Source: Candidatus Cloacimonadales bacterium (GTDB taxonomy: Bacteria; Cloacimonadota; Cloacimonadia; Cloacimonadales; JAIOQZ01). From it: a stretch of DNA of 64,000 nucleotides. Position 1 is the stretch's first letter. The number at the start of each line of letters is the position of its first letter. Position numbers and translations under genes: made by a program. The stretch lies in contig OY762463.1 of assembly GCA_963665815.1 (NCBI GenBank), positions 608,001-672,000 on the forward strand. Reading direction: 5' to 3'. Below are positions 6,140 to 31,620 of this stretch, one piece after another. The notes under the pieces were generated by a model. The model saw only the letters and a program-made list of their open reading frames with translations, did no database searches and was not told the DNA's origin.

Positions 6140-7417
6140 CTATTTCATCATAATAAGTTTTTTAGTTGCTGATCCTTCACTTGTGATAATTCTGGCAAAG
6201 TACACACCGGAAGCTGAATTGCCACCATTATCATCTTTACCGTTCCATTTTACACTGTGATTACCTGAAGTGAAATGTCTGTCTGCAAGAGTTCTTACTT
6301 TCTGACCTCTGATGTTGTATATTGAGATGTTTACGTTTGATTCATTTTTAAGGTTAAAAGCCAGATTGGTTTCCGGATTAAATGGATTAGGGTATACACT
6401 GAGTTCAATGTTAAAATGAACAACTTCATTCTGTTCGTTTGCAACAGGCATCGGATTATGGTAAACAATATCTGTTACACCAACGCCAACCGTGAAAGTC
6501 AAAGTCTGATTAAATGCGTTATTAATATCATATACGTAAATATGAGAGTTCTGGATATAATCTACAGCATCTGCTGAAACAAGCAGGTTGTCATGACCTG
6601 TAATTACGTTTCCACCGGAGAAAGAACCTGTTGCAGAACTCAGATCAGACATATTGAATGCGAAAACATCTGCAGGGTAAGAATTACCGAGGAAGAGATA
6701 GTTGTCTGTCAAGTAGATTGAACCCGGGGCATTCTGACAATCGAAAGTCTGTTCCAGAGAATCTGAGGATGCATTGTAAATGTCCACTTTACCTGTTTCA
6801 GTATCGAAGTTTCCTGTGCAGACAACATAGTATTTATCATTTCTGAAAACTACATTTCGCGGATTAGTTGAGCAGTTGATGATTGAGTCTGATGTGAAAT
6901 CATTCAGGTTGATTTTATAAACTTCACCCTGTCCATAACTCCAGTCACCAGGATTGAAACCTGTGCAGGCGACATACAGGTAGTTATTATAGATAGCCAT
7001 TCCTTCCGGTGCTCTACCAACGTTAACTGTACCGAGAATTGTACCGTTCTGCAGATCGACTTTGTATACTTTATCCAGGTCGTTACTGTTAACATAGGCT
7101 GTATCACCATCGATCACGAAGTAGTTAGGACTTGAGCTATCTTCCATATAGATGTAACAGGTGTTTGACGGATTATCCAGATCGATTTTCTGAAGAGCGT
7201 TTTCGTAAGTTATTACAACAATAGCATAGTTGTTCCAGATTCGAACGATGTTTGGAGCTGATTCCTGTCCCTGCCCCAGCATGGCAAAAGCATTGTTGAC
7301 CTGACTGGTAGCAGCATCATATTTACTGAGTGTTTCGGACTCGGAGTTAACAACATAATAATCGGCAAATAATAATGATGTGATAAAAAGTATTGTTAAG
7401 AGAATTCTGATTCGCAT
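6140..7417 (-). CDS. Secreted YncE/BtuG-like beta-propeller with T9SS-type (FlgD-Ig) C-terminal domain; probable cobalamin-related surface protein
   Basis: Signal peptide; repeated propeller blades ('VNVGRAPEGMAIYNNYLYVAC'); C-terminal YPNPFNPET...IYNIRGQKV...SGVYF...KKLIMMK; directly downstream of a cobalamin riboswitch. Confidence 0.8.
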   Translation of the reverse strand: MRIRILLTILFITSLLFADYYVVNSESETLSKYDAATSQVNNAFAMLGQGQESAPNIVRIWNNYAIVVITYENALQKIDLDNPSNTCYIYMEDSSSPNYFVIDGDTAYVNSNDLDKVYKVDLQNGTILGTVNVGRAPEGMAIYNNYLYVACTGFNPGDWSYGQGEVYKINLNDFTSDSIINCSTNPRNVVFRNDKYYVVCTGNFDTETGKVDIYNASSDSLEQTFDCQNAPGSIYLTDNYLFLGNSYPADVFAFNMSDLSSATGSFSGGNVITGHDNLLVSADAVDYIQNSHIYVYDINNAFNQTLTFTVGVGVTDIVYHNPMPVANEQNEVVHFNIELSVYPNPFNPETNLAFNLKNESNVNISIYNIRGQKVRTLADRHFTSGNHSVKWNGKDDNGGNSASGVYFARIITSEGSATKKLIMMK

Positions 7418-7489
7418 ATTAAATCTCCTTATGCAGGAGAAAGGCCAAATAGTTGTGCCTATCTGACTTTCCCACCGAAAGTATTATAG

Positions 7490-7660
7490 ATTTGCACTGG
7501 CATGTTTCCTGACTCGAAAGGATTACCTCGATCTAACCTTCCCATTCTTGCGAACAGTGGAATTCAGATCTCGCCTTTCTTACAGTAGCGGGGGCTGTTA
7601 CGGCTTTTCACCGTATTCCATCTTAGCACTTCAGAACGAAGTGAACCAACACATATATGT
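7490..7660 (-). ncRNA. Cobalamin (B12) riboswitch
   Basis: Minus strand reads GGTTC...AAGATGGAATACGGTGAAAAGCCGTAACAGCCCCCGCTACTGTAA...CCACTG...GGGAAGG...GAGTCAGGAAACATGCC (B12 box). A downstream hairpin TCTCCT/AGGAGA (7424-7440) sequesters the RBS. Confidence 0.93.
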
Positions 7661-7702
7661 ACAGAAATTTTAATACTGGTTGATGCGTCAAGCAAATTGT
7701 AA

Positions 7703-8612
7703 AATGAAAAATGCATTACGAAAGGTTGAAAACCTTTGGGAAGCTTTGCATAATATCAAAATCGGTTAGCTTTTGCGAAATAAATTCGATGAGATTTTAG
7801 AATATATTAAGAAAACCATATTGTCCTGAAATGTTTTTAATTCTAAAATCGAATCAACTACTCCCAATAATGAAAAATGCATTACGAAAGGTTGAAAACC
7901 TTTGGGAAGCTTTGCATAATATCAAAATCGGTTAGCTTTTGCGAAATAAATTCGATGAGATTTTAGAATATATTAAGAAAACCATATTGTCCTGAAATCT
8001 GATTAATTCTAAAATCGAGTCAACTACTCCCAATAATGAAAAATGCATTACGAAAGGTTGAAAACCTTTAGAAAGCTTTGCATAATATCAAAATCGGTTA
8101 GCTTTTGCAAAATAAATTCGATGAGATTTTAGAATATATTAAGAAAACCATATTGTCCTGAAATGTGATTAATTCTAAAATCGAGTCAACTACTCCCAAT
8201 AATGAAAAATGCATTACGAAAGGTTGAAAACCTTTAGAAAGCTTTGTATAATATCAAAATCGGTTAGCTTTTGCGAAATAAATTCGATGAGATTTTAGAA
8301 TATATTAAGAAAACCATATTGTCCTGAAATGTGATTAATTCTAAAATTGAGTCAACTACTCCCAATAATGAAAAATGCATTACGAAAGGTTGAAAACCTT
8401 TGGAGAGCTTTGCATAATGACAAAACATGTAGCTTTTGCAAAATAAATTCGATGAGATTTTAGAATATATTAAGAAAACCATATTGTCCTGAAATGTGAT
8501 TAATTCTAAAATCGAGTCAACTACTCCCAATAATGAAAAATGCATTACGAAAGGTTGAAAACCTTTAGAAAGCTTTGTATAATATCAAAAATAGGTTAGC
8601 TTTTGCGAAAAA
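7703..8612. repeat. Tandem array: five full 165-166-bp units plus one partial
   Basis: Unit start AATGAAAAATGCATTACGAAAGG at 7703, 7869, 8035, 8201, 8367 and 8532; copies differ by a few substitutions. Confidence 0.98.
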
Positions 8613-8727
8613 AATTGATCCTGATAATTCTTACAATCAACATCGTCTATTTAAACAAAAATTACTTCTTTTAAATTTTCTTGCAGTAATCATGGGAACA
8701 ACAATATTTTGTTTTAAGGAGTAATGA

Positions 8728-9426
8728 ATGATATCCAAAGAAATGATCACAGTTCCAGCCTCTATAGAAGAAAAATGGCAGGAGATTATTGATTTAATGG
8801 CGAAAATAATCGGTGTTCCATCCGGTTTAATAATGAGGATCAATGGCAGCAACATTGAAGTCTTCATTGCCAGTCAAACACAAAATAACCCCTATAAACC
8901 CGGAGATCGTGAATATCTGCCAAATTCCGGTTTATATTGTGAAACTGTTATAAACACATCTGATAAATTGATTGTACCAAATGCCTTGAATGATCCTGAC
9001 TGGTGTAGCAATCCGGATGTAAAACTGAACATGATTTCCTATATGGGATTTCCAATTCTGCTTCCGGATAATACTCCATTTGGCACAATATGCGTTCTTG
9101 ATAACAAGGAGAATAAATATTCAGAATTGTTTTCTGATTTAGTTGAAAAGTTCCGGAATATTATTAACAGAGATATTGAACTACTTTACTTAAACCAGGA
9201 ACTTGGGCTGAAGAACAAGCAATTGACTGACATTATAAGCGAAATTAAAACTCTCAAAGGATTGATTCCGATTTGCTCCTGGTGCAGAAAAGTCAGAGAT
9301 GATGATGGTTTCTGGAAAAGTGTTGAAACATATCTTGAAGAACATTCGGCAGCAGAATTTACACATGGAATCTGCGAGGAATGCAAGAAGAAACTGTTTG
9401 ATTCACCGATAAAAAGTAATACATAA
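8728..9426 (+). CDS. GAF-domain protein with C-terminal CxxC...HGICxxC module
   Basis: GAF ('GLYCETVI...ISYMGFPILLPDNTPFGTICVLD'), coiled coil, then 'LIPICSWCRKVRDDDGFW...FTHGICEEC'. Confidence 0.85.
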   Translation: MISKEMITVPASIEEKWQEIIDLMAKIIGVPSGLIMRINGSNIEVFIASQTQNNPYKPGDREYLPNSGLYCETVINTSDKLIVPNALNDPDWCSNPDVKLNMISYMGFPILLPDNTPFGTICVLDNKENKYSELFSDLVEKFRNIINRDIELLYLNQELGLKNKQLTDIISEIKTLKGLIPICSWCRKVRDDDGFWKSVETYLEEHSAAEFTHGICEECKKKLFDSPIKSNT

Positions 9427-17028: not shown

Positions 17029-17036
17029 TATTTTCC

Positions 17037-17066
17037 CTTGCGAATGGTTGCAGACCTTCGCAATGG
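17037..17066. repeat. REP-like palindrome
   Basis: CTTGCGAATGGTTGCAGACCTTCGCAATGG; the same half-sites recur at 53018-53048 and a related hairpin lies in each 166-bp array unit. Confidence 0.6.
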
Positions 17067-27866: not shown

Positions 27867-27949
27867 TAGAGCTCTGCATAATAGCAAATAAAAACGAGTT
27901 GCTTTGGTGGAAAAAATCGAGTCAACTACTCCATTTAAACAAAGCACTC
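27867..27949 (+). mobile_element. Internally deleted copy of the MITE-like element
   Basis: Left end TAGAGCTCTGCATAATAGC, then AAAATCGAGTCAACTACTCC (identical to the array unit), then a degenerate right end. Confidence 0.7.
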
Positions 27950-31468: not shown

Positions 31469-31620
31469 TAGAGGCCTTTGCACAATTGGTGCAGTTGACT
31501 CGATTTCAGTGTCCATCAAAATCTGACTATAATAAGCTTTCCCTTAAATATTTCATTTTGATTTCAAAAATCTCGTCGATGCTTTTTAATCAGCTTGATT
31601 AGCTATTGAGCAAAGCTCTA
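31469..31620 (-). mobile_element. MITE-like element (152 bp), same family as the array unit
   Basis: Terminal inverted repeats TAGAGGCCTTTGCACAAT / ATTGAGCAAAGCTCTA; internal motifs TCGA.GAGATTTT and AAATCGAGTCAACT in the same order as in the 166-bp unit. Confidence 0.8.

Follow-up and report, generated by a model that had tools for sequence, protein, structure and literature searches.

Bacterial MITEs such as the Correia elements of Neisseria, the enterobacterial ERIC/IRU elements and the pneumococcal RUP elements are non-coding sequences of about 100-160 bp with terminal inverted repeats and a target-site duplication; they occur in dozens of intergenic copies and fold into a long hairpin. 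REPs have neither terminal inverted repeats nor a target-site duplication. Circles and tandem dimers of insertion sequences (IS911, IS30, IS21, IS256) contain abutted ends that form junction promoters, with the -35 box in one end and the -10 box in the other, which are active only when the ends are joined. In eukaryotes, MITE-derived satellite DNA consists of head-to-tail arrays of miniature transposon monomers that are homogenized compared with the dispersed copies. Cloacimonadota is a phylum of uncultured anaerobic-digester bacteria.

Correia elements can carry promoters at their ends, according to the available part of the text of the review PMC3184786, which mentions tandem arrays only for BOX and not for MITEs with terminal inverted repeats. 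Our literature search returned no description of bacterial MITEs arrayed head to tail and, for Cloacimonadota together with transposable elements, only isolated co-mentions of both terms.

Here, we analyzed a 64,000 nucleotide stretch of DNA (the window; genome positions 608001-672000) from a complete Cloacimonadales genome of 3.96 Mb and 36% G+C. It contains a tandem array that is very probably a satellite-like amplification of one old, partly decayed MITE copy together with ~23-40 nt of adjacent DNA, and the MITE belongs to a family previously undescribed in Cloacimonadota.

The 166 bp array and its surroundings

Tandem Repeats Finder reported a period of 166, 5.5 copies, 95% matches and a score of 1658 for window positions 7703-8616, and the spacings from unit start to unit start were 166, 166, 166, 166 and 165 bp (Table 1), confirming the five copies of 165-166 bp and the partial sixth that an earlier note on this DNA had described. 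All units are direct repeats, placed head to tail in a single orientation. The copy-specific variants were found exactly as listed there (GGGAAG in units 1 and 2; AGAAAG in units 3, 4 and 6; GGAGAG in unit 5), and complete units differed pairwise at 3-12 positions. The units are 93-98% alike, whereas the nearest dispersed MITE copy is only ~74% alike to them. The array was also rightly taken to be non-coding: its period is not a multiple of 3, and a 93-aa open reading frame within it (8264-8545, minus strand) has no Pfam match.

We considered whether the assembler had inflated a single unit. No read or contig that we examined spans the array (none of the short-read contigs from three runs of one sample bridges it), and the short-read contigs showed neither C at 7999 nor T at 8348, both single-copy variants, as an artefact would have it. 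However, Logan unitigs internal to the units (run X1) had depths of 13.6/13.7, 28.0/28.1, 41.9 and 49.2, against 11.9-13.1 in the flanks. These depths, about 1, 2, 3 and 4 times that of the flank, correspond to stretches whose multiplicity in the assembly is exactly 1, 2 and 3, and 3.6 on average for the last. Furthermore, variant-specific unitigs for units 3 and 4 were present at single-copy depth. All three runs behind the unitigs sequenced a single sample that may be the source of the assembly, and the unitigs are hence not independent of it. Because unitig depths match the assembled multiplicities, a single-unit artefact is very unlikely, with a probability that we place close to nil; the exact copy number rests on the assembly and the depth ratios, since no short-read contig bridges the array.

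Table 1. Features of the array, its neighborhood and related repeats, in window coordinates
Feature	Position	Strand	Remarks
Beta-propeller protein, 425 aa, with type IX secretion C-terminal sorting domain	6140-7417	-	Neighbor to the left of the array
Cobalamin riboswitch	7482-7665	-	114.7 bits (Rfam); precedes the open reading frame at 6140-7417
Tandem array	7703-8616	+	Full units at 7703, 7869, 8035, 8201 and 8367; partial sixth at 8532-8616; period 166 (165 for unit 5)
Joint hairpin, unit 1	7721-7737	+	AAAGGTT-GAA-AACCTTT, 7 bp stem; in every unit; array-specific
Promoter-like site, unit 1	7726-7754	+	TTGAAA-17-CATAAT; the loop of the joint hairpin holds the -35 and the 5' inverted repeat the -10; consensus match only
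Equivalent promoter-like sites	7892-7920, 8058-8086, 8224-8252 (TATAAT), 8390-8418, 8555-8583 (TATAAT)	+	Consensus match only
5' terminal inverted repeat, unit 1	7739-7754	+	Recurs every 166 bp; 8237-8252 in unit 4
MITE body, unit 1	7755-7868	+	Central hairpin missing; ends in conserved AAATCGA(G/A)TCAACTAC block and degenerate 3' end; from alignment with dispersed copies
GAF-domain protein, 232 aa	8728-9426	+	First gene downstream of the array; 145 nt past the last promoter-like site
REP-type hairpin	17036-17066	+	Separate dispersed family, outside the array
Internally deleted MITE copy, 83 bp	27867-27949	+	Flanking pentamers AATTA, AATTG
Full-length MITE copy, 150 bp	31471-31620	-	nhmmer E 2.5e-16

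Given the position of the cobalamin riboswitch on the minus strand, the array starts 38 nt upstream of the riboswitch 5' end, so its reported location directly upstream of a B12-riboswitch promoter region was borne out. In this stretch (6140-7665, minus strand), the riboswitch governs the beta-propeller protein with the type IX sorting domain, whose role may be to capture B12 in secreted form or at the cell surface, and not transport or biosynthesis.

Compared with the sister species (G001), an identity of 83% extends across the riboswitch gene and its promoter region and stops exactly at the left edge of the array. Beyond that edge, the sister species (G001:C8:862683) has unrelated DNA with a leucyl-aminopeptidase-like gene, the counterpart of which is found 59 kb away in the array genome, at 555759-557086. 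The array therefore sits at a synteny break, and the DNA to its right has no syntenic counterpart in the sister species. We also observed an unrelated repeat of ~410 bp, with at least 15 copies at 85-98% identity (for example, at genome positions 75563-75976, 555220-555612 and 1295508-1295921); one copy adjoins the rearrangement point between both species at 555 kb.

A dispersed MITE family and its mobility

Positions ~37 to 162 of the array unit recur throughout the genome at 62-74% identity. Two rounds of nhmmer gave 92 matches at E<1e-3 in the 3.96 Mb genome, of which 50 were near full length, 39 of these outside both the window array and a second array described below. The canonical element is about 155 bp long (copies about 150-158 bp) and has 16 bp terminal inverted repeats, GAGAGCTTTGCATAAT and its complement, in which 82.4% of cells pair across the 16 bp ends of 36 copies. 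Its interior contains an inner 15 bp palindrome, a small central hairpin and a very conserved 3' subterminal block, AAATCGAGTCAACTAC. This block (alignment columns 135-152; for example, window positions 8177-8196) exceeds the terminal repeats in conservation and lacks a mirror image on the 5' side; it may be a protein-binding site. All 92 matches are intergenic apart from short overlaps, based on gene calls from open reading frames, and their orientation relative to neighboring genes follows no rule (29/27/25/11 of 92). A stand-alone element near 31469, which the earlier note had related to the long part of the array unit, proved to be a full-length member on the minus strand, and the long part itself, which spans about 125-145 nt of every unit, is a family member with an internal deletion that lacks the central hairpin. 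A long subfamily of ~230 bp also exists, in which an insert of ~80 nt separates the 5' region from the inner palindrome (455040-455330, 1845380-1845670 and 3635450-3635740).

We then compared the sequences flanking the 33 copies that have both ends recognizable, the array units themselves lying outside this test. The 5 bp flanks matched at a mean of 3.73 of 5 positions, compared with 1.71 after permutation (maximum 2.36 in 2000 permutations), and 12 of the 33 copies had a perfect 5 bp target-site duplication. We did not observe a signal at k = 3, 4, 6, 7 or 8 in the same copies. At one locus, the sister species has a single ACAAC where the array genome has ACAAC-MITE-ACAAC, as expected of an empty site; the other three loci that we compared in this way have flanks that are rearranged and not adjacent in the sister species. 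Two orthologous insertions, each within more than 3 kb of synteny, are common to both species. The family thus moved both before and after the split from the sister species. Terminal inverted repeats, a target-site duplication and an empty site mark the long part of the unit as a MITE-type element, as had been proposed. It also recurs across the genome well above chance. The short hairpin is unique to the array, and blastn-short found no copy of it longer than 22 nt elsewhere in the genome.

The family has a narrow distribution. It was present in 1 of the 40 relatives searched, a genome of the same genus. In an exact-pattern scan of genome contigs, the sole other record was that same genome, a Candidatus Cloacimonadales MAG, which is also the only close relative of the array genome in the collections searched. 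In metagenome contigs, a 24-mer from the array joint had no match, and a 21-mer from the MITE 5' end had one, a chance match that is not a MITE.

The earlier note had suggested seeking a cognate transposase or RAYT, and none was found among inverted-end pairs, by self-BLAST or in three transposase Pfam families. Specifically, among inverted pairs of MITE ends separated by 0.4-6 kb, none surrounds a transposase and also has a target-site duplication, and neither the PF01609, PF00665 and PF13586 scans of both species nor a self-BLAST for multi-copy elements of at least 600 bp produced a parent transposase with matching ends. The PF01609 match in the array genome is a 316-aa DDE_Tnp_1 frame with a TTG start that lacks the N-terminal part (2772779-2773729) and has no matching MITE ends. 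PF13586 had no match in the array genome or the sister species, and the IS3-like (rve) copies have no ends matching the MITE. A very short MITE remnant lies ~550 bp downstream of the DDE_Tnp_1 frame. Two IS3-like (rve) elements are present in ~7 and ~9 copies in the sister species (for example, G001 C13:895597 and C13:1275471); in the array genome, the first occurs once and the second is absent.

The fold of the family bears on another suggestion, namely that the array encodes a structured non-coding RNA or a processed multi-unit transcript. Folded as single-stranded DNA, a canonical copy reaches -28.8 kcal/mol (z = -6.1), and such long hairpins in single MITEs, the regular spacing of the units and the promoter-like sites described below would all suit an RNA gene. 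However, the window unit folded as RNA has a z of only -1.2, and 25 of 200 shuffles fold as well. RNAalifold gave 0 consensus pairs for 36 MITE copies. When we drew a structure of 37 pairs by hand, 80.4% of its cells paired compared with 78.7% after shuffling, and the covariation score was reached by 74 of 500 shuffles, so that pairing amounts to consensus conservation alone. In Rfam, the window yielded only the cobalamin riboswitch at the gathering threshold, a permissive scan of the array (E<=10) only chance mir-1005 matches with E about 1, and eight dispersed MITE loci only a chance sroE match. Since shuffled sequences pair nearly as well and often reach the covariation score, the pairing reflects an ancestral palindrome that is decaying neutrally. 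Confinement to one genus and the presence of target-site duplications also speak against an RNA family. Covariation, an RNAalifold structure and an Rfam match for the array were all lacking, so the suggestion is not supported, and we regard it as extremely unlikely.

Joints between the units

Between successive MITE parts, each unit has about 23-40 nt of joint sequence that includes the array-specific hairpin. We scored the element ends with a position-weight matrix built from 36 dispersed copies. The 5' repeat at 8237-8252 scored 16.6 bits, with a background fraction of 1.5e-5 at or above that score. No 3' inverted repeat in the window units was significant over ~75 positions (best background fraction 0.0075; second candidate 0.018). 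Because the 3' repeat is not statistically recognizable, we conclude that the array units are no longer intact MITEs. By eye, the joint hairpin can be taken for two inverted-repeat fragments that were duplicated, but this reading was not significant by position-weight matrix.

The joint hairpin was at the center of the earlier reading, in which a REP hairpin alternates with a MITE in a composite BIME-like array, possibly serviced by a REP-associated tyrosine transposase. The genome does hold a genuine REP-type family that includes the palindrome at 17037: its half-sites, CCTTGCGAATGG and CCTTCGCAATGG, lie at 17036-17066 in the window and at ~30 other genome sites, with 31 and 30 occurrences where a shuffled genome gave 1 and 0. 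Compared by eye, the array hairpin agrees with the reverse complement of that palindrome at ~22 of 32 positions, and some family members have the GGTTGAAAACCTT core in common with it. However, an nhmmer profile of the REP family, which had 93 matches in the genome at E<=10, had none within the array (genome 615600-616700) even at this threshold, and the outer stem of the REPs is not kept in the array. Furthermore, the array units all point in one direction, unlike BIMEs. The hairpin is therefore not a REP element, given also that it has no copy longer than 22 nt elsewhere, and co-oriented head-to-tail units without alternating REPs do not make the array BIME-like. The composite reading is very improbable and largely refuted. 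What stands of it is a MITE-derived unit, repeated in tandem, upstream of the B12-riboswitch region; its REP content, BIME character and structured RNA do not.

The joints also contain promoter-like sequences. In each joint, TTGAAA precedes the (C/T)ATAAT box of the inverted repeat with a gap of 17 bp, so that the array may provide one to six promoters into the GAF-domain gene at 8728. All six sites are on the plus strand, face that gene and match the sigma-70-like consensus at 10-11 of 12 positions with a 17 bp spacer; the last ends 145 nt before the start codon. The region has 22 promoter-like sites compared with 6.9 +/- 2.4 in shuffles. In the array genome, TTGACA shows a 3.8-fold enrichment in divergent over convergent intergenic regions, and the organism appears to use promoters of the TTGACA type; TTGAAA (1.18 times) and the Bacteroidetes-type TAnnTTTG (1.19 times) are not enriched in promoter-bearing spacers.

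These sites suggest that the unit might have been amplified or kept as a working sigma-70 promoter, with a copy number varied by recombination that would tune the GAF-domain gene (8728-9426). Such a role would fit the co-orientation and spacing of the six sites, with one of the two best (TATAAT) being the closest to the gene, as well as the rarity of the configuration at dispersed MITE ends, where only 5 of 66 meet the same promoter rule, and the apparent use of TTGACA-type promoters. MITE-borne promoters are documented for Correia elements in PMC3184786. However, the six sites descend from one founder and therefore count as one event, a single inherited motif rather than six independent ones, and TTGAAA lacks the enrichment that TTGACA has. 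By eye, the second MITE array has no comparable site, so arrays form without one. We judge an adaptive promoter array to be unlikely.

Origin of the arrays and comparison with known systems

The second array, at genome positions 759040-759945, consists of 6 x 152 bp units that are 97% alike and show a higher-order period of 305 bp. Its units are complete MITEs, and their 3' and 5' repeats abut with a 1 nt overlap and no target-site duplication between them. At this joint, the 3' inverted repeat scored 11.3 bits (background fraction 7e-5) and the 5' inverted repeat 12.8 bits (4e-5). The array adjoins glycosyltransferase-type genes, and its locus has no syntenic counterpart in the sister species. 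Overall, two of the four non-coding arrays in the genome whose period is 150 bp or more are built from the MITE family. A tandem array of 179 bp x 11.3 copies lies at 3465021-3467032 (91% matches, higher-order period 357, period not a multiple of 3).

Smaller tandem arrangements of the family were also found. A head-to-tail MITE doublet elsewhere in the genome has its two members 9 bp apart, each with its own target-site duplication; another copy has an internal triple duplication of 40 bp; and the sister species has a 114 bp tandem duplication around a MITE remnant. By eye, the unit of this last duplication resembles the remnant region near the DDE_Tnp_1 frame (2772779-2773729).

We propose that a founder MITE copy, or a head-to-tail doublet like the one seen elsewhere, was amplified by unequal homologous recombination or replication slippage, a mechanism that we infer from the anatomy only. 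Such an expansion would therefore give units composed of element plus spacer, homogeneous among themselves, in an array ending at arbitrary points within the unit. The array would need no function to exist and is mostly ordinary selfish-DNA debris.

The abutting ends of the second array, which lack a target-site duplication, are not by themselves explained by unequal crossing-over between two independent insertions. An alternative is that a transposase made head-to-tail multimers of a transposition intermediate, with ends abutted as in IS circles or tandem dimers, which were then integrated or formed in place. Such concatemers would be consistent with the well-scoring 3' and 5' repeats that overlap by 1 nt in the second array, and by eye the window joint hairpin also resembles an abutted joint (AAAGGT..ACCTTT). 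However, neither candidate 3' repeat in the window joint is significant (0.0075 and 0.018), no transposase is known for the family, and the step from a dimer to six copies would still need recombination. The higher-order 305 bp period of the second array likewise points to unequal exchange. We consider a concatemer origin rather unlikely, although a transposase-made dimer is possible as a seed because the ends of the second array abut.

A more elaborate scenario would make both arrays fossil multimers of a transposition intermediate of a Cloacimonadota IS family, with a junction promoter retained in the window joint. The array would now be a recombination-tunable stack of up to six promoters that sets the level of the GAF-domain regulator, back to back with the B12-riboswitch promoter. 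This combination we regard as quite improbable.

The arrays are no new kind of system, and their tandem arrangement is unusual but mechanistically unsurprising. They do show that a bacterial MITE can seed satellite-like head-to-tail arrays, and the family accounts for many of the hairpin-like or RNA-gene-like repeats in this genome. Both assemblies and copy number are likely to differ between strains at the two array loci. The window array also provides a simple setting for testing whether transposon joints create promoters.

The family resembles the Correia, ERIC/IRU and RUP elements in its small size, lack of coding sequence, terminal inverted repeats and target-site duplication, and also in its dozens of intergenic copies, its long hairpin fold and the promoter-like boxes that its ends can carry. 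It differs from them in that it has no detectable sequence relation, duplicates 5 bp rather than TA at its target, is confined to one Cloacimonadales genus with no parent IS found, and has two head-to-tail array loci, of 5.5 and 6 units. The array resembles REP, BIME and REPIN systems with a RAYT insofar as these consist of short, clustering intergenic palindromes, and its genome holds such a family, including 17036-17066. It differs from them in a hairpin that the REP profile misses, in co-oriented 166 bp units, and in a long part with terminal inverted repeats and a target-site duplication.

The second array is like the circles and tandem dimers of IS911, IS30, IS21 and IS256 in that right and left ends directly abut, and the window array is like their junction promoters in having a -10 box inside one end and a -35 box 17 bp upstream in the joint. 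However, the window -35 box is not demonstrably in the other MITE end, where the 3' repeat is not significant; no transposase or intermediate is known for the MITE; and the arrays have ~6 units rather than 2. With eukaryotic MITE-derived satellites, the array has in common head-to-tail MITE monomers that are homogenized relative to the dispersed copies, here in a bacterial genome and in arrays under 1 kb.
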